From NCBI GenBank assembly GCA_007376385.1, contig VMGC01000005.1, positions 96,001 to 160,000 of the forward strand: a DNA stretch of 64,000 nt. The letters run 5' to 3'. Positions 20,463 to 63,554 of this stretch are shown here, piece by piece. The translations under genes and the position numbers were made by a program. The DNA comes from Parcubacteria group bacterium Gr01-1014_8 (GTDB lineage Bacteria > Patescibacteriota > Minisyncoccia > Phycocordibacterales > UBA2100). A model generated the notes under the pieces. The model was not told the origin of the DNA. It ran no database searches and worked only from the letters and a program-made list of their open reading frames with translations. Position 1 is the stretch's first letter, and each line of letters starts with the position of its first letter.

Positions 20463-20518
20463 GGCCACACTTGGATTTTCTAAAGCCGGCATACGCCCGC
20501 TTTAGAAGATCTCGGCGT
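20463..20518 (+). repeat. Family B hairpin repeat, copy B2 (abuts the csp stop codon)
   Basis: GGCCACACTTGGATTTTCTAAAGCCGGCATACGCCCGCTTTAGAAGATCTCGGCG. Inner dyad TCTAAAGC...GCTTTAGA. Confidence 0.8.
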
Positions 20519-20736
20519 TATGCCATCGGCTGAGCAACTGCTCGGCTGACCTGAGTCGCGTTCGGACCTTTCGGAGAGTCCACGACTTCAAACGTCAATT
20601 TGTCACCTTCTCGAAGCTCGTCGAATGTAACGCCGACAAGCTCTTTGGAGTGGAAGAAGACATCCTTCTCCTGCCCCTCGATCTTGATGAACCCAAATCC
20701 TTTATCAGTGATTCGGGCGATTGTTCCTGTTTGCAT
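20518..20736 (-). CDS. cspA: cold-shock protein (CspA family)
   Basis: MQTGTIARITDKGFGFIKIEGQEKDVFFHSKEL carries the RNP1 (KGFGFI) and RNP2 (VFFHS) motifs. The ORF-track N-terminal extension (MRACFYQFYFHFI) was rejected as non-coding. Confidence 0.9.
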   Translation of the reverse strand: MQTGTIARITDKGFGFIKIEGQEKDVFFHSKELVGVTFDELREGDKLTFEVVDSPKGPNATQVSRAVAQPMA

Positions 20737-20935
20737 AATGAAATGAAAATAGAATTGGTAAAAACATGCTCGCAACGCGCTATAGAGTTTAATCCAAGTG
20801 GTCGCAGGTAAGTATCAAAAGCAGTGTGCTGGGAGTTGTAGGTCGATCCCTCTTCTCTGGATCAGCCCTGAAATTGATGCCCGAAGGGTATCACACGCTT
20901 TCTCGCTTGTCCAGTCCTAAAAGAGGGGTATACTG

Positions 20936-21508: not shown

Positions 21509-21787
21509 TCAGATGCCGAGCAGTTTGCCGAACGTAACGATAGCAGTTCCGACGAAACGTATAGGGTCAACTTTTGCGCGAGACGTGCGAGAGCTCGTGT
21601 TCGCGTACGTACCCGGATAGAGGTACATCTCTACATATGAATCTCTTGCAGCCATTCTGTTCGTTATCTGTGTCGTATCGGGGCTGGCGACGGGACCGAA
21701 TGCCAGATAGTACCCGCCGGCGATAATGACAACGACGCTGACCACAATTGTCGCAAGAGGGGAGACAGGACTCATATTTTGTTGCAT
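21509..21787 (-). CDS. small membrane-anchored hypothetical protein
   Basis: 92 aa with an N-terminal TM helix (LATIVVSVVVIIAGGYYLAF). Confidence 0.4.
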   Translation of the reverse strand: MQQNMSPVSPLATIVVSVVVIIAGGYYLAFGPVASPDTTQITNRMAARDSYVEMYLYPGTYANTSSRTSRAKVDPIRFVGTAIVTFGKLLGI

Positions 21788-21925
21788 AAAATGTTCAGCA
21801 CTTACGTTAGATACTGTAATTATACGAGTTATTTGGATACTTTAGGTACCTCCTGTGAATAGCATCACAACACCAGATTTTCTCCATGTGTGCAAGTGTG
21901 AGGGCATGATATAACGCGAGCCCAT

Positions 21926-22450
21926 ATGAATAGGGCTTCTATACAGCTTTCCTGCCTCGCATCCATGATGGCAGCCGTGTTTATGATCGTACCCGTAACT
22001 GCGGATGCGCAATATTATGACGACTATGGCTCCCAAATAGCGTATGAGGAAGTGTACGACTTTGGTTATGGATACGATTACAGTGATTTCTACGATACCT
22101 ACGATTATTACGATTACGGATATGACGACTACTCGCAGTACCAGTGGGTGAGTTACGGGGGAAACTATGGAGGCGGATACAATTCTCCCTACCAGTCTGC
22201 GTATCCATATCAAGCAGCGTTTCCGGTCTCATACGGCCAGCAGCAATATGGCCAACCGTACGCGCAGTACACTTTTTCCGCATACCAATTCAATTCTCCG
22301 TATCAATACACGTACAATGCATCGCCTACCGGCGATTACATTCCATACGTGAACGAGCCGCTGTGCGACTACCCGGGCTATGGCCGCTATTCGTGCAGTT
22401 ATCATCCAAGCCAGCCGATATACGACTACTGGACAGGTACCTGGTACTAG
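21926..22450 (+). CDS. secreted Tyr/Asp/Gly-rich low-complexity protein
   Basis: Signal peptide, then repetitive Tyr-rich sequence (YDYSDFYDTYDYYDYGYDDYSQYQW...GGNYGGGYNSPYQSAYPYQ). Roughly one residue in five is Tyr. Confidence 0.55.
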   Translation: MNRASIQLSCLASMMAAVFMIVPVTADAQYYDDYGSQIAYEEVYDFGYGYDYSDFYDTYDYYDYGYDDYSQYQWVSYGGNYGGGYNSPYQSAYPYQAAFPVSYGQQQYGQPYAQYTFSAYQFNSPYQYTYNASPTGDYIPYVNEPLCDYPGYGRYSCSYHPSQPIYDYWTGTWY

Positions 22451-22597
22451 AGAGGTGTTTGCTCGGCATGTGTTTGCAGCCGCTGGTGTCCGGCGCTGCA
22501 CATTCGGTCTGTTGCTCTTAGTACTTCCTACATTCAGCCTACTGGCTTCAGTATTTCCTCGTTCTTCACTTGGTCATCGCTCTGCGCTCGGCAGGCT

Positions 22598-22637
22598 GCA
22601 TACCTTAGTGGTGCCGACCGGCACCACTAAGGTATGC
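22598..22637. repeat. Family A palindromic element, copy A1
   Basis: GCATACCTTAGTGGTGCCGACCGGCACCACTAAGGTATGC is a perfect 40-nt palindrome. It lies just upstream of the Rpf-like gene. Confidence 0.8.
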
Positions 22638-22696
22638 GTTCTTTGCGGGGATATCTTTCTTGTTTGGGGCATCGTACGCCTGCTACTGTTACTGGG

Positions 22697-23677
22697 ATGA
22701 TGTTAAGAATTAAGAGTGCAGCAGGCTTCGTTCTACTCTTGCTGCTTTTGCCGCCTCTCGTAGGCGCACAAGGGCTGCCTGAGTCGCCAGCGTCCCCCAA
22801 TAAAGACGTTGAGGCGCTCGTTCGCGCGGAATTTGCAGACATACCGCTCATGATATCCATCGCACAGTGCGAATCAGAAATGAGGCAGTATGGCCCGCCC
22901 GGCAAGGGCGCAAACGGGGCCCTGCACGGAGGCGCAGGCGGCGCGATGGTAGGAGTCTTTCAGATCCATGAAGGAGTTCACCGCGCGGCAGCCAAAGCAA
23001 AGGGCATGGATATTGATACGCTCGAAGGAAATATCGCCTACGCGCGCTACCTATTTCAAACAGAAGGTACGAATCCGTGGCTCTCATCAGCGTCGTGTTG
23101 GCAGAGTACAGCGATGACGATTTCCTCCGTTGTTGATCCTGGTTCGATTGTTGTACCCGGCGATGTTGCGGAGCATAAGATATACACGTTTAATTCGCGC
23201 ACGCTCACCGCCGCATTGAAAATCGGCGACACGAAGCCAGAGGTCATCACGCTGCAAAAGATGCTGAACGGATCAGGTTTTGTGCTTGCTGAGTCCGGCC
23301 CAGGCTCGCCGGGCAATGAGACATCTACCTTCGGCCCCTTAACACGCGCGGCAGTGCGAACCCTGCAGTGTCATTCAAAGATAATTTGCTCCGGCGACGA
23401 AAAAACGACTGGCTTTGGATTCGTCGGTCCGCGCACGCGTGCAGCCCTCATGCAATTTGCAAAGGATAACGTGTACGTTCAGCCAGAGCCGATAATTGTG
23501 ACTGTGCCCCTGGACGGGCAGGCCGGCAGCTCTTCAACGTCTACAGCGTCGACTACACCACCAGGTTCTTCCGGCTCACCGACTTCCATGACGCCAGAAA
23601 AAGCTGCTCAAATAGATCTCTTGCAAGCACAGATACATGAGTTGCAACATCGAATTGCCGAACTAATGGATACGTGA
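22697..23677 (+). CDS. secreted lysozyme-like/Rpf-like transglycosylase domain protein with two peptidoglycan-binding (PG_binding_1) repeats and a C-terminal coiled coil
   Basis: Signal peptide (MMLRIKSAAGFVLLLLLLPPLVGA). IAQCES...GVFQIHEG...NIAYARYL...W resembles the transglycosylase-like/SLT lysozyme fold. TLQKMLNGSGF...FGPLTRAAVRTLQ and GFVGPRTRAALMQF are PG_binding_1-like. Confidence 0.65.
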   Translation: MMLRIKSAAGFVLLLLLLPPLVGAQGLPESPASPNKDVEALVRAEFADIPLMISIAQCESEMRQYGPPGKGANGALHGGAGGAMVGVFQIHEGVHRAAAKAKGMDIDTLEGNIAYARYLFQTEGTNPWLSSASCWQSTAMTISSVVDPGSIVVPGDVAEHKIYTFNSRTLTAALKIGDTKPEVITLQKMLNGSGFVLAESGPGSPGNETSTFGPLTRAAVRTLQCHSKIICSGDEKTTGFGFVGPRTRAALMQFAKDNVYVQPEPIIVTVPLDGQAGSSSTSTASTTPPGSSGSPTSMTPEKAAQIDLLQAQIHELQHRIAELMDT

Positions 23678-26451: not shown

Positions 26452-26491
26452 AAATACCATAATGGTGCCGGTCGGCACCATTATGGTATTT
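26452..26491. repeat. Family A palindromic element, copy A2; likely bidirectional terminator after ppsA
   Basis: AAATACCATAATGGTGCCGGTCGGCACCATTATGGTATTT is a perfect 40-nt palindrome, followed by CGTTTTTC. Confidence 0.8.
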
Positions 26492-27801: not shown

Positions 27802-29136
27802 TTACGGTTGGACGAATGACTGGGTCGAACTCGTTGCCGTGTTGTTCGCTGCGTCCGTCGTCTCTATAGCGTAGTAGTACGTTGTACTTGCCGTAAGCCC
27901 AGAGAGTCCGAGCAGGTGGTTTGTTACGAGCGTGCTATTAAACGCGTTCAAGGTCGGACTCGCCAGCGTGACAGGCGTTGTTGTGCCGTACCATACTTTA
28001 CTCGAGGCGTTTTCGTTCGTCGCCCATATCACGTTTGCTGCCGTTGCAGAGGTAGACGATGCGTTTAGACCCGAGATAATTGGTGCGGTTGTGTCAGGCG
28101 TTCCTGTCGTGAACGTCGAATCTCCCGAAGTTGCACTGTTGCCCGCAGCATCTTTCGAGATAACGCGGAAGTGGTACAGCGTTCCGTTGGTGAGACCCGT
28201 AATCGCGACGCTGTGACTTGTCACAAGCGTTGCATTAAGCGTTGTCGTTGCCCCGTAGGAAGTTGTTGTTCCGTATTCGACTTGGGATGTTGCGCCTTCG
28301 TTGGTGTTCCACTGGATCGTTGCTCCTGCAGTTGTGATGCTTGTCGCAGCAATGTTGCTGAACGTCGGAGCAGTTGTGTCGGTTGGTGTCCCGCCCCCTG
28401 CACATACGCCGACAGAGTCGCCGTGAGCGAGGTGGGCTCCGAGAGCCGGAATTGCGATGACGAGTGTTTGCGGAGACGCACCGGCTGGCTTGTGGCACAG
28501 AGTCACAAATCCTTGTCCCGGCGTCGTCGAGCTGATCTCAAGTCCAAGTCTCTTGATGATGCCGAACGGAAGTTCTCGGCCGATGAAGAGCGAAAGGATT
28601 TTAGCCTGCGTCTTTGGGCCAAAGATACCGATGGAATCAATGCCGTGCTTTTTCTGGAACAGGCGCAGCGCTGCTTCGGTTCTCGGGCCAAAGAATCCAG
28701 TTATGAATTCCGGCGAGAAGAGCGAAGGATCCTGTGCAAGAAGTTCCTGCAAGTCGCGCACGTCATCGCCTGACATGCCGCGTGAGAGCGAGCGAAGGAA
28801 TTTCAGGTCCTTTCTCACATCCTTTATATCGGATTTTGTTTCTTTTATCTCGACTTTGAGCGCTGCTCGCGCTGCGTCGTTCGAATCGTCGTTGCTCAAG
28901 GCCTTCTTGTCCGCCTTCAGCTTTGCGAGCTCTTCTTGCAGAATCTTAATCTGCTGCATGAGCGCATCGGTGGTTGTGCCAAGTGCTCCGAAGTTGAACA
29001 CCCACGACTTGTTGCCGTTGTTACTCTTTCCCGACTTTCCATGTTCGCCGTCATTATCGTTGTCTGCATATGCGAGCGGTGCCATAGCGAGGCCCATGAA
29101 CATTGCAGAGATTATTCCTACTCGTAATAGATACAT
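27802..29136 (-). CDS. secreted protein with a coiled coil, a PG_binding_1 domain and two fibronectin type III-like domains
   Basis: Signal peptide MYLLRVGIISAMFMGLAMAPLAYA. SGDDVRDLQELLAQD...FGPRTEAALRLFQKKHG is PG_binding_1-like. The two Thr/Ser-rich ~90-aa repeats (...VEYGTT...LTNGTLYHFRV...; ...VWYGTT...LTASTTYYYAI...) are Fn3-like. Confidence 0.7.
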   Translation of the reverse strand: MYLLRVGIISAMFMGLAMAPLAYADNDNDGEHGKSGKSNNGNKSWVFNFGALGTTTDALMQQIKILQEELAKLKADKKALSNDDSNDAARAALKVEIKETKSDIKDVRKDLKFLRSLSRGMSGDDVRDLQELLAQDPSLFSPEFITGFFGPRTEAALRLFQKKHGIDSIGIFGPKTQAKILSLFIGRELPFGIIKRLGLEISSTTPGQGFVTLCHKPAGASPQTLVIAIPALGAHLAHGDSVGVCAGGGTPTDTTAPTFSNIAATSITTAGATIQWNTNEGATSQVEYGTTTSYGATTTLNATLVTSHSVAITGLTNGTLYHFRVISKDAAGNSATSGDSTFTTGTPDTTAPIISGLNASSTSATAANVIWATNENASSKVWYGTTTPVTLASPTLNAFNSTLVTNHLLGLSGLTASTTYYYAIETTDAANNTATSSTQSFVQP

Positions 29137-29433
29137 ATTTGCTATTGCTTTATTACTAAGTTTATAAGCCGCACGAATGTGGATTATACACCCGTACTTG
29201 TAGGTAGGACGGTGGGGGAGTGCGCTTCTTGCGGTTGCCCAGATTAGCACACGTTTACAGCGTACTTGTCAATTTTCGGCAGTCCCAACCAATCATCAAG
29301 CACTGACGATAGTCTTGAATCCACCGTACGCCATCTTTTTCGTTCTTCCCGGCCAGCAAATAGGGCAGGGACCGCTTCCGCGAAACTTGTGACCGCGGTT
29401 GCAAGTTCTCCATGGAGATTTCTTTTTCATTGT

Positions 29434-59391: not shown

Positions 59392-59516
59392 CACGACGGC
59401 ACTTCCTGCAAAAATAGGATAGTGTTTGAAGTCTGAATTTCGCAATTATTTCGAATGCATTATCTCATGGGGTACAATAGCTCCATATGGATACACGAAT
59501 AAAGTCGGACTTTACG

Positions 59517-59852
59517 ATGACGAGTGAGATAGCGAACTATCTCGACAGCAGGCTTAGTTCGCTGGAGAAGCAGATGGGCTCAGATACGAGTGGCGCGCGG
59601 TGTGAAGTAGAAATATCTCGCGCTGCAGGGAAGAAGCACAGCAGCGATTATATGTGGACTGCCGAAGTGAGAATAATCATTCTTGGTAAAAAAGCAGCGT
59701 ACGCGAAGAATTCCGCAGCAAGCGTGAATGCGGCCATCGATGATGTTAAGGAAGAGATAGAGCGGCAGCTGCGAAAAAGCAAAGGAAAGAGCACGAAAGA
59801 GTCGAGGCGAAAAGGAAAAAGATTCAAGGACGCAATTCGGGGTGGCAAATAA
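59517..59852 (+). CDS. hpf: ribosome hibernation-promoting factor (HPF/RaiA family, short form)
   Basis: ...YLDSRLSSLEKQMGSDTSGARCEVEISRAAG...MWTAEVRIIILGKKAAYAKNSAASVNAAIDDVKEEIERQLRKSKGK follows the HPF beta-alpha-beta-beta-beta-alpha pattern (cf. E. coli ...[37 protein letters not shown]). Start trimmed. Confidence 0.6.
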   Translation: MTSEIANYLDSRLSSLEKQMGSDTSGARCEVEISRAAGKKHSSDYMWTAEVRIIILGKKAAYAKNSAASVNAAIDDVKEEIERQLRKSKGKSTKESRRKGKRFKDAIRGGK

Positions 59853-59862
59853 TCCGTATACC

Positions 59863-59900
59863 GTATACCTTAATGGTGCCGGTCGGCACCCTTAAGGTAC
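59863..59900. repeat. Family A palindromic element, copy A3 (imperfect), after hpf
   Basis: GTATACCTTAATGGTGCCGGTCGGCACCCTTAAGGTAC. Confidence 0.75.
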
Positions 59901-61725: not shown

Positions 61726-61813
61726 CCGCGGGGTATTCGACCCTATGTTGGTTCCTCGGCTCGGAAATGAACATGAGTACACGTTCATTTCACTCGCAAC
61801 GCTCGCCAATAAA
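61726..61813 (-). repeat. Family C dyad-symmetric repeat, copy C3 (reverse complement)
   Basis: The reverse complement reads TTTATTGGCGAGCGTTGCGAGTGAAATGAAC-gtgtactcat-GTTCATTTCCGAGCCGAGGAACCAACATAGGGTCGAATACCCCGCGG. It lies in the large intergenic region upstream of def. Confidence 0.8.
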
Positions 61814-61977
61814 CAGAGAACCATCGCAGAGCAGCAAGCGATGGTCCTCCCAGAGTCGCCCGTGGGGGCGCCACTGATCCGCTTGTCCCGGCGCGGGGGG
61901 CCGGGTGCGGAGTTCAATGTTCAAGACAGCCGGCATTCTACAATACATATGATTTTTGCGCACGTTATACTGCGGGT

Positions 61978-62253
61978 ATGAAGCACATTGGGGCACATTT
62001 AAAGACGCGCAAGCATATTCTTCGCGAGACGGAGCGGGGGGAATTGATGAAATTCTTTTGCGAGCGCCTGAATTCGACGCGCCGGTTTGACGGTCTGCCT
62101 CGTATAACGATGGCCCGCATGGGGAAAATACTTGAAGGCATTCCGACAAAGGACCTCTATTATCTAAAGCGGGTTTGTAATGATGCTGGCAATTTCTCCA
62201 AAAAATTCTGGTGGGAGGTAAATCCAAAAAAGCATCCTGACGCTAAGATCTGA
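61978..62253 (+). CDS. hypothetical basic protein
   Basis: 91-aa ORF followed by palindrome A4. No family recognised. Confidence 0.4.
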   Translation: MKHIGAHLKTRKHILRETERGELMKFFCERLNSTRRFDGLPRITMARMGKILEGIPTKDLYYLKRVCNDAGNFSKKFWWEVNPKKHPDAKI

Positions 62254-62262
62254 CCTCGATGC

Positions 62263-62306
62263 CTAAATACCTTAGTAGTGCCGGTCGGCACTACTAAGGT
62301 ATTTAG
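62263..62306. repeat. Family A palindromic element, copy A4
   Basis: CTAAATACCTTAGTAGTGCCGGTCGGCACTACTAAGGTATTTAG is a perfect 44-nt palindrome. Confidence 0.8.
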
Positions 62307-62537: not shown

Positions 62538-63554
62538 ATGGCCTTTTCTTTCAGTCCAAAGCTCGGCATTGACCTCGGCACGACGACCGTTCTCGTCTTT
62601 GTGCCGGGTAAGGGCATCGTATTGAACGAGCCGTCGGTCGTGGCTGTCTCCCAAGAAGAAAACCGCATTCTCGCGGTAGGAAACGACGCGAAGGAAATGA
62701 TAGGCCGAACCCCCGAATCTATCGTCGCGTATCGTCCTATGAAGGACGGCGTGATCGCCAACTACCGCGTAACCGAAGCAATGCTTCGCTATTTCATACG
62801 GAAGGCCCTCGGACGGTGGAATTTGTTCCGTCCCGAAGTAATGGTCAGCGTGCCAGCCGGGGTTTCTTCAACAGAGAGGCGCGCCGTCGTCGAGGCGGCG
62901 ACAAAGGCGGGAGCGCGCCACGCATATGTGGTCAAAGAACCTATTCTTGCCGCGATAGGCGCTGGTATTCCTATCCACGAAGCGCGCGGACACATGATAG
63001 TGGACATCGGCGGAGGCACGACCGACGTTGCGGTTATCTCGCTCGGCGGTATCGTTGCGTCCACATCGGTAAAATGTGCGGGCAATCGTATTGACCATGC
63101 GATAGCGGACTACGTGAAAAAAACATTCAATCTTTCAATTGGCGACAAAATGGCGGAGGAAATAAAAATTCACATCGGCTCTGCCGTTCCCGTTGATGAG
63201 GAATTGACGATGACGGTTAAAGGGCGGGACCATCTTACGGGACTTCCGCGTTCGATAGAACTCGGAACGAACGAAGTCGTACGTGCGGTGAGCCGTGAGC
63301 TTCGCATGATGGTTGGAGCAATTCGCGATGTGTTGCAGGAGACACCGCCAGAGCTCGCATCTGACATCATAGATAACGGCATTACGATGACGGGAGGCTC
63401 TTCACAGCTTCGTAATCTGACGGAACTTGTATTTCGGCGCACAGGAGTGAAAGCGCGCGTAGCAAAAGATGCCCCATACTGCGTTGCAAAAGGCACTGGC
63501 GAAGCACTCAAACACTTGGACGTCTACAAAAAAGCGATTATCAGTAAACGATAA
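62538..63554 (+). CDS. mreB: rod-shape-determining protein MreB (actin homolog)
   Basis: Phosphate-1 LGIDLGTTTVLVF, phosphate-2 DIGGGTTDVAVISLGGIV and adenosine motif MTGGSSQL. 338 aa. Confidence 0.92.
   Translation: MAFSFSPKLGIDLGTTTVLVFVPGKGIVLNEPSVVAVSQEENRILAVGNDAKEMIGRTPESIVAYRPMKDGVIANYRVTEAMLRYFIRKALGRWNLFRPEVMVSVPAGVSSTERRAVVEAATKAGARHAYVVKEPILAAIGAGIPIHEARGHMIVDIGGGTTDVAVISLGGIVASTSVKCAGNRIDHAIADYVKKTFNLSIGDKMAEEIKIHIGSAVPVDEELTMTVKGRDHLTGLPRSIELGTNEVVRAVSRELRMMVGAIRDVLQETPPELASDIIDNGITMTGGSSQLRNLTELVFRRTGVKARVAKDAPYCVAKGTGEALKHLDVYKKAIISKR

Follow-up and report, generated by a model that had tools for sequence, protein, structure and literature searches.

The subject of this work is a gene at positions 21926..22450 of the forward strand in a 64,000-nucleotide stretch (hereafter, the window) of contig VMGC01000005.1 from Parcubacteria group bacterium Gr01-1014_8. 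It is a complete coding sequence for a tyrosine-rich, putatively secreted protein of 174 residues plus stop, with a 100% match to a GenBank entry. The gene is real, and belongs to a family whose architecture, composition and tyrosine spacing are conserved and under purifying selection. Every full-length member presents a predicted Sec signal peptide with an AxA cleavage site, a Tyr-rich low-complexity region, and a C-terminal domain of 42 residues. In the alignments, this domain is the part that defines the family, and the only one conserved at the sequence level. It constitutes a new domain, without curated family or solved relative, on a putative secreted Tyr-rich low-complexity structural protein of an otherwise known kind. 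An earlier reading of the same DNA (the original prediction) overlooked both the domain and the fact that the family, as judged from the homologues retrieved, is confined to a narrow lineage of the candidate phyla radiation (CPR). We tentatively favour, at somewhat less than even confidence, the interpretation that the protein is a non-enzymatic, self-associating component of an extracellular matrix or adhesive, capped by a disulfide-stapled beta mini-domain.

The gene and its homologues

Retranslation of the window recovered the 174-residue open reading frame (ORF), together with the sequence quoted for it in the original prediction. The GenBank counterpart, 'hypothetical protein G01um10148_997' of Parcubacteria group bacterium Gr01-1014_8, is identical in sequence and annotated with 161 residues. 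Its start is placed at Met13/14 (21962/21965), which leaves out the charged N-terminal region. The start at 21926 is favoured here because the 174-residue form yields a more canonical signal peptide, as the homologues have.

Tyrosine accounts for 39 of the 174 residues (22.4%), followed by serine (16), glutamine (15), glycine (15), aspartate (14) and proline (12), with two arginines and no lysine. The mature chain (146 residues, past residue 28), in which a single Arg and no Lys remain, contains 26.7% Tyr, 10% Gly, 10% Gln, 9% Asp, 9% Ser and 7.5% Pro. The extreme tyrosine content that had been claimed is evident against the 144 mechanically called ORFs of at least 100 residues in the window, which have a median of 2.6% Tyr and a next highest value of 8.3%; 3.1% would be expected from base composition. 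Across all six frames of the window, this ORF is the sole Tyr-dense stretch. The 'YD/YG repeat' originally described is a compositional texture only, given that Tandem Repeats Finder detected no tandem repeat at the DNA level. A recent repeat expansion was rejected on the same grounds.

An indexed search returned six further homologues besides the GenBank self-match, and an exhaustive hidden Markov model (HMM) search with a profile of the C-terminal domain yielded 18 cluster representatives at E <=1e-3 among 1.84 billion. Together with scans of genomes and metagenomes, these searches total approximately 35 distinct sequences. A word-indexed search with the domain profile gave one match only, the exhaustive HMM search being the informative one. 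The homologues keep the frame, the architecture and the stop position. In the two least saturated pairs, the ratio of nonsynonymous to synonymous substitution rates (dN/dS, Nei-Gojobori) stands at 0.12 and 0.06 over the low-complexity part; over the C-terminal domain, the values are 0.04 and 0.03. The low values in the low-complexity part (0.06-0.12) therefore indicate that this part is constrained, and not junk.

These results leave a negligible probability to the explanation that the ORF is a non-coding artefact, i.e., a chance ORF or the shadow of a gene on the opposite strand. In its favour, several long ORFs overlap the gene on both strands, and the upstream sequence shows neither a strong Shine-Dalgarno nor a sigma-70 consensus. 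However, the minus-strand ORFs 21842..22213 and 21981..22283 translate to V/I/R-rich runs, which are shadows of TAC/TAT/GAC codons. The overlapping ORFs at 21842-22213 (-), 21981-22283 (-) and 22144-22521 (+) are all shadows of Tyr, Asp and Gly codons (e.g., VVVISVIVIIVGIVEITVIV), and none has homologue support. The artefact hypothesis is rejected because the homologues conserve the frame, dN/dS is far below 1 and the antisense ORFs are such shadows. An out-of-frame artefact and a lack of homologs were also the two outcomes against which the original prediction had been staked, and neither came about.

The named carriers are the Parcubacteria group bacterium of the window, two Candidatus Kaiserbacteria, and one metagenome-assembled genome (MAG) labelled Saccharibacteria, all of them members of the CPR. 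The full label of this MAG (CAYJVW010000021.1, source of loci L003 and L005) is 'uncultured Candidatus Saccharibacteria'. The Tyr-rich gene of the MAG and the phosphoenolpyruvate (PEP) synthase next to it are closest to, and syntenic with, the Kaiserbacteria and Parcubacteria loci, and the label may be wrong. The recognisable metagenome sources of homologues are groundwater (Hainich, Rifle and Northern California). The rarity seen here, 18 cluster representatives among 1.84 billion, was measured for this family only. A literature search returned nothing relevant on Tyr-rich Parcubacteria proteins, on CPR prion-like domains or on the string WTGTWY.

The tyrosine-rich region and the C-terminal domain

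The predicted Sec signal peptide covers residues 1-28 (21926..22009, forward strand), and is composed of MNR, a hydrophobic core, and TADA followed by Q, with cleavage expected between ADA and Q. Rule-based inspection found a hydrophobic core and an AxA site in nearly all full-length homologues, a canonical example being MKSRLLLLGLAIVFAVPCIASA, followed by WYDY. AlphaFold 2 (AF2) models a helix at residues 3-18, within the signal peptide. The canonical signal peptides found family-wide support the original claim of an exported protein, and suggest that the protein is exported and cleaved. Two further assignments were considered and rejected. A bacterial lipoprotein, in which the signal peptide would close with a lipobox ([LVI][ASTVI][GAS]C), does not fit, as the sole early cysteine (Cys10, in Q-L-S-C) lies ahead of the hydrophobic core and is not shared by the homologues. 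C-terminal sorting signals (LPXTG/sortase, PEP-CTERM, GlyGly-CTERM and PGF-CTERM) do not fit either, as the ...PIYDYWTGTWY end has no hydrophobic segment or basic tail.

The low-complexity region varies from 40 to 145 residues in length, and no alignment is possible between subfamilies. Tyrosine makes up 15-29% of every member and 18-40% of this region, in which Q/N/G/S/Y/P account for 52-90%, aliphatics for 1-16%, and lysine and arginine together number 0-4 (69%, 4% and 0, respectively, in the window protein). The partner residues of tyrosine depend on the lineage, and may be Q/P-rich (P0016, P0017, L015), G/D-rich (L013, L019) or D/C-rich (P0022, L018). In the window protein, the region is divided into an acidic Tyr/Asp(Glu)/Gly block at residues 29-69 (22010..22132, forward strand), with 12 D/E and no basic residue, and an uncharged Tyr/Gln/Gly/Ser/Pro block at residues 70-132 (22133..22321, forward strand), of which the composition is conserved and the sequence is not. 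All 12 acidic residues are in the first half of the region and none in the second; such a diblock is also seen in many relatives, and is not universal. In the AF2 model of the full protein, the predicted local distance difference test score (pLDDT) is below 50 for residues 34-142, with values below 50 in the acidic block and of 33-44 in the uncharged one. The middle of the protein is thus predicted to be disordered.

The tyrosines are evenly spread, not clustered. In comparison with composition-preserving shuffles of the family's low-complexity regions, adjacent YY pairs are depleted (80 observed vs 147 expected, z = -7.6), tyrosines 2 and 4 positions apart occur in excess (z = +2.9 and +6.0), and spacings of 6 and 7 are at or slightly under expectation (z = -0.5 and -1.5). 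In the window protein, gaps between aromatic residues reach 6 at most. Even spacing, polar spacers and predicted disorder, in a sequence that is under purifying selection and cannot be aligned, together match the signature of a sticker-and-spacer associative polymer.

Even patterning of aromatic stickers is reported to favour condensates in prion-like domains. The window protein has the characteristics of such a domain, as it is predicted to be disordered, is polar, is poor in charged and aliphatic residues, and has evenly patterned aromatics. Tyrosine has been described as the primary driver of phase separation and the main sticker in prion-like domains (PMC10888811). Prion-like domains of the FUS type and the low-complexity regions studied here have in common predicted disorder, dominance of Q/N/G/S/Y/P, few charged and aliphatic residues, evenly spaced aromatics, and conservation of composition without conservation of sequence. 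Hence, the partner residues D/G/Q/S/P and the likeness to phase-separating domains in the original prediction find support in both composition and predicted disorder. The present family differs in being extracellular and bacterial, in an aromatic fraction two to three times higher (22-45%), in the lack of Arg partners or an RNA-binding context, and in the acidic block of many members.

The conserved C-terminal domain comprises residues 133-174 (22322..22447, forward strand), with sequence SPTGDYIPYVNEPLCDYPGYGRYSCSYHPSQPIYDYWTGTWY. Its motif is P-T-G-D-x6-8-C-x-[YFW]-x2-Y-G-R-x2-C-x3-P-x-Q-x-[IVL]-Y-D-x-W-T-G-[TS]-W-Y, which always terminates the protein with an invariant last Tyr. Among close members, 34 of the 50 alignment columns are invariant; across all members, 11 columns are invariant and 7 nearly so. 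The window protein, which is the seed of the HMM profile, fits every invariant column, including Cys147 (22364-22366) and Cys157 (22394-22396). In the HMM, genome and metagenome searches, the domain was not seen alone or fused to other architecture.

No match was found in Pfam or NCBIfam at permissive E-values for the protein, its homologues or 21 C-terminal domains (for the window protein, E up to 0.1 for Pfam and up to 1 for NCBIfam), and searching the PDB with the full-length sequence returned noise only. The Pfam models of the WW domain, the choline-binding CW_binding_1 repeat and the WXXGXW / YXWGXW repeat did not match, and the idea of a WW domain was rejected accordingly. A class II bacteriocin or a precursor of a ribosomally synthesised and post-translationally modified peptide (RiPP) was also rejected, given the domain's 4 D/E vs 1 K/R, the Sec-type leader, and the lack of recurring immunity, transporter or modification genes among the 17 non-redundant loci whose neighbourhoods were compared.

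The C-terminus is predicted to be folded. Its pLDDT is 53-66 in the model of the full protein, and averages 78 when the C-terminal 50 residues are modelled alone with a 21-sequence alignment. The latter model places strands at residues 133-139, 144-149 and 153-156, the last two forming a hairpin flanked by the two cysteines. A Cys147-Cys157 disulfide probably staples the second hairpin of a three-stranded sheet.

The terminal decapeptide IYDYWTGTWY (residues 165-174, 22418..22447, forward strand) resembles the beta-hairpins of chignolin and CLN025. The sole PDB match of the domain profile is 3wkn_E (the artificial AFFinger p17), obtained through its chignolin graft YDPETGTWY with E = 0.0067. 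Chignolin (GYDPETGTWG) and CLN025 (YYDPETGTWY) are designed hairpins of 10 residues, held by a Tyr2-Trp9 contact, a pi-turn from Asp3 to Thr8, a Thr6-Thr8 hydrogen bond, and Gly7 (PMC9054626). The AF2 beta-bridges at 166-167 and 172-173 correspond to the chignolin register (Y2:W9 / D3:T8). Y166, D167, T170, G171, T172, W173 and the final Tyr all occupy invariant or nearly invariant columns, so that sequence and model together point to a chignolin-like hairpin. In comparison with CLN025, the window decapeptide shares 7 of 10 positions, members ending in IYDPWTGTWY share 8 of 10, and all fold-defining residues are present in the family, including the terminal Tyr10 of CLN025. The family differs in having Trp instead of Glu at position 5 and often a residue other than Pro at position 4, and its hairpin is the end of a larger 42-residue domain. 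Because chignolin is artificial, the likeness is one of convergence on a stable hairpin, not of homology.

Proposed mode of action and alternative explanations

In the interpretation favoured above, the mode of action is physical, not catalytic. A small, anionic protein free of Lys would leave the cell by the Sec pathway and have its signal peptide cut off. Its disordered region, of about 100 residues, would present Tyr stickers each 2-5 residues, separated by small polar spacers (G/S/Q/N/P, plus D/E in the N-terminal acidic block). This would be followed by the all-beta mini-domain, i.e., a three-stranded sheet and then the chignolin-like hairpin, with which the chain ends freely. Outside the cell, multivalent contacts between the evenly spaced aromatic stickers would cause the protein to self-associate, and the product may be a coacervate, a gel or an amyloid-like solid. 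Such a sticky matrix or coat would help these ultra-small, probably host- or particle-attached bacteria adhere, with the folded C-terminal domain as a specific docking or nucleating end. Scans of Pfam and NCBIfam found no enzymatic or known binding domain in the protein, which counts in favour of this interpretation, as does the apparently monocistronic gene followed by a putative terminator hairpin. We infer the self-association, the adhesive or matrix role, the docking by the C-terminus and the disulfide from the features described above; the 'surface or attachment matrix component' suggested in the original prediction has the same standing.

Several points weigh against this interpretation. 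The signal peptides and their cleavage were assessed by visual inspection and with simple rules. An anchor could not be recognised in the protein (neither LPXTG nor lipobox nor transmembrane segment), which leaves surface retention unexplained, and no fixed operon or functional partner was found among the 17 loci. The aromatic content (22-45%) is far above that of characterised phase-separating domains, and might cause insoluble aggregation instead of a functional condensate. In addition, the tight conservation sits in the C-terminal domain, so that the functional unit could be this domain itself. The alternative in which activity resides in this domain (as a secreted ligand, a signalling peptide, an inhibitor, or a module that is lectin-like or binds peptidoglycan), with the Tyr-rich region as a pro-region, spacer or solubility tag, is given an outside chance. 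It is supported by the concentration of conservation in the domain (34/50 columns; dN/dS 0.03-0.04), by its invariable position at the extreme C-terminus with an invariant final Tyr, and by the presence of a PG_binding_1 neighbour in 5 of the 17 loci, directly next to the gene in L004 and in the window. Moreover, sugar binding is typical of small beta modules that are disulfide-stapled and rich in aromatics. Yet the domain is found neither alone nor fused to other architecture, the low-complexity region is itself under purifying selection with composition and patterning conserved, and neither fold nor sequence searches revealed similarity to known binding modules. The anionic character of the domain (4 D/E vs 1 K/R) and the lack of linked immunity, transporter or receptor genes further argue against a peptide of the bacteriocin or RiPP type.

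We consider it unlikely that the protein is a covalently cross-linked envelope component, in which oxidative dityrosine (or Tyr-Cys) coupling would produce an insoluble coat, as in the Bacillus spore-coat proteins CotC/CotU/CotG, plant extensins and insect resilin. The extreme tyrosine content and the extracellular location would suit this chemistry, a cupredoxin-domain protein neighbours the gene in L003, and spore coats provide a precedent, with Tyr-rich outer proteins that assemble into high-mass forms and dityrosine links (PMC7944565). The outer spore-coat proteins CotC, CotU and CotG of Bacillus are small and very Tyr-rich, like the present family, and are structural, located outside the cytoplasmic membrane and engaged in higher-order assembly (PMC7944565), as the present family would be. 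No homology to them was found in the Pfam and NCBIfam scans. Spore-coat proteins are Lys-rich and are assembled in the mother cell without a signal peptide, whereas members of the present family bear a Sec signal peptide and a conserved C-terminal domain, lack Lys, and occur in CPR bacteria that do not sporulate. Among the adhesive or elastic proteins of eukaryotes, mussel foot proteins, resilin and extensins likewise combine secretion with Tyr-rich low-complexity sequence, and are proposed to act at surfaces through coacervation or cross-linking. Mussel foot proteins are basic and the others Pro/Hyp-rich, and their chemistry relies on tyrosinase or peroxidase; enzymes of this type are not linked to the present family, which is not homologous to these proteins. 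Scanning of the window ORFs (~11.2-30.8 kb) revealed neither a peroxidase nor a laccase, multicopper oxidase or tyrosinase, and none recurred in the 17 loci, and the cupredoxin neighbour is present in one locus only. Furthermore, cross-linking requires neither even Tyr spacing nor YY depletion, and these bacteria are generally regarded as anaerobic fermenters, in which coupling dependent on H2O2 or O2 is less likely.

There is a slimmer chance still that the protein binds metals or minerals, in which case the acidic Asp/Tyr block would chelate Ca2+ or Fe3+, or bind aquifer-sediment minerals, and so serve in attachment, nucleation or metal buffering. In about 41 residues, the N-terminal block combines 12 acidic residues with many tyrosines and no basic residue, some members (P0022, L018, L020) present blocks dense in Asp, Tyr and Cys, and all recognisable sources are groundwater. 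However, the acidic block is not family-defining, because it is absent from many members (P0011, P0013 and P0015-P0018 have 0-1 acidic residues in that half), and no metal-handling genes are linked in the 17 loci. The dityrosine cross-linking and biomineral association of the original prediction were not borne out, no oxidase, peroxidase or laccase being a conserved neighbour. The probability that these explanations leave over belongs to something else.

The interpretation as a self-associating matrix protein may also be extended, at a low probability of its own, to a prion-like Tyr-sticker protein whose extracellular assembly is nucleated or capped by a natural 'chignolin' hairpin. It would form a condensate or amyloid-like glue, built together with a second Tyr-rich family (described below), as a lineage-specific attachment material, so far unrecognised, of these episymbiotic or particle-attached CPR bacteria.

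Genomic neighbourhood and significance

The gene is preceded by a divergent intergenic spacer of 138 bp (21788..21925), located between a membrane-protein ORF of 92 residues on the reverse strand and the Tyr-rich gene. This spacer is presumed to be the promoter region; no consensus sigma-70 site was found inside it. Approximately 150 nt past the stop, a hairpin with a perfect 19-bp stem followed by TTCTTT (22597..22648, forward strand; fold z = -4.2 for 22440-22700) is likely the transcription terminator of the gene, which appears to be monocistronic. Its palindrome, ACCTTAGTGGTGCC-N4-GGCACCACTAAGGT, occurs in four copies in the window (22597-22638, 26456-26487, 59867-59898 and 62269-62300), with 8 arm matches vs 0.19 expected. 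Three copies are directly downstream of forward-strand ORFs, namely the Tyr-rich gene, the PEP synthase (stop 26421) and ORF 59487..59852, and the fourth is between ORFs 61790..62227 (-) and 62538..63554 (+). The palindrome looks like a genome-wide family of terminator or repetitive extragenic palindromic (REP)-like hairpins that is not in Rfam; scanning Rfam around the gene returned nothing credible.

A secreted PG_binding_1 protein and the PEP synthase are encoded downstream, whereas a 157-residue membrane protein, a cold-shock gene, DUF5667, a YgjP-like gene and two-component genes are upstream. The mechanical start of the PG_binding_1 ORF 22634-23677 (+), an ATG at 22634, lies inside the hairpin stem; the ATG at 22697, which opens a canonical signal peptide (MMLRIKSAAGFVLLLLLLPPLVGAQG), is the more likely start. 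The N-terminal domain of this protein ('IAQCESEMRQY...GVFQIHEG') has no match in Pfam, NCBIfam or the PDB, and the likeness of its 'IAQCES' motif to Rpf/transglycosylase-like domains is a lead that none of these databases supports. The remark in the original prediction that the organism has many cell-wall-interacting proteins fits a second secreted PG_binding_1 protein at 27802-29250 (-), with fn3 and purple-acid-phosphatase N-terminal-like domains.

Across the 17 loci, the recurrent neighbours are the cold-shock gene (9), a cluster of histidine-kinase/response-regulator-type ORFs (6), PG_binding_1 (5), PEP synthase (5), DUF1003 (5) and SWIB (4). Because neighbour order and orientation vary, this looks like lineage synteny and not an operon. 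The cold-shock gene (20518-20775 (-) in the window) is at most 5 kb from the Tyr-rich gene and always on the opposite strand in its nine loci, being immediately adjacent (78-185 bp) in L012, L015 and L016; its linkage is probably conserved synteny. No oxidase, peroxidase, transglutaminase, sortase or transporter is linked in the loci compared, and the membrane-anchored cupredoxin-domain protein, which is the divergent neighbour in L003, was found in that locus only.

Four proteins have in common a hydrophobic tail, ...[TL]FGKLLGI, encoded by the window ORF 21509-21787 (-) (92 residues), L001 5638-5880 (-) (80 residues), L004 1571-3619 (-) (682 residues) and L006 3353-5254 (-) (633 residues). 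The two short ones are divergent neighbours of the Tyr-rich gene, and both contain VDPIRF.G...VTFGKLLGI. The tail may be a lineage-specific C-terminal anchor or sorting tail. The two large proteins are secreted and carry about 8-9 copies of the Cys-rich repeat PGPGGC.G..C..YC...H.EC..FA, and the stalk that precedes their tail is QY-rich in L004 (YREQYGEQYQKQFENQYREQYQQEYQQQYNQQYQEQYQQQYQQ) and Pro/Gly-rich in L006.

A second, unrelated secreted Tyr-rich family (23-28% Tyr) was observed at L007 236-574 (+), L018 2915-3244 (+) and L020 2836-3240 (+), approximately 0.4-1.3 kb upstream of the gene with the C-terminal domain and with a SWIB-domain gene in between; the window has no copy. Its members present the motif QYQLY.C..YYS..YSYSPC, YNYNYN runs, and a GWW or GYFWY end. 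Given this second family nearby and the QY-rich stalk of the anchored envelope protein in L004, Tyr/Gln-rich sequence apparently recurs as an extracellular material within this lineage.

The finding has no direct bearing on a long-standing question, and would be of modest interest should the protein prove to be an inert filler of the wall or a soluble ligand. The family's C-terminus nearly reproduces, in a natural protein, the designed mini-protein that has been studied most, which is relevant to protein folding and provides a diagnostic motif for the family. With the Tyr-rich region, sticker-and-spacer rules could be examined in a natural extracellular protein of very high aromatic valence. 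Little is known of how CPR bacteria attach to a host or a particle, and the majority of the proteins that they secrete are unannotated. With 146 mature residues, two modules and evidence that requires no partners, the family is a compact candidate for their extracellular adhesive or matrix material.

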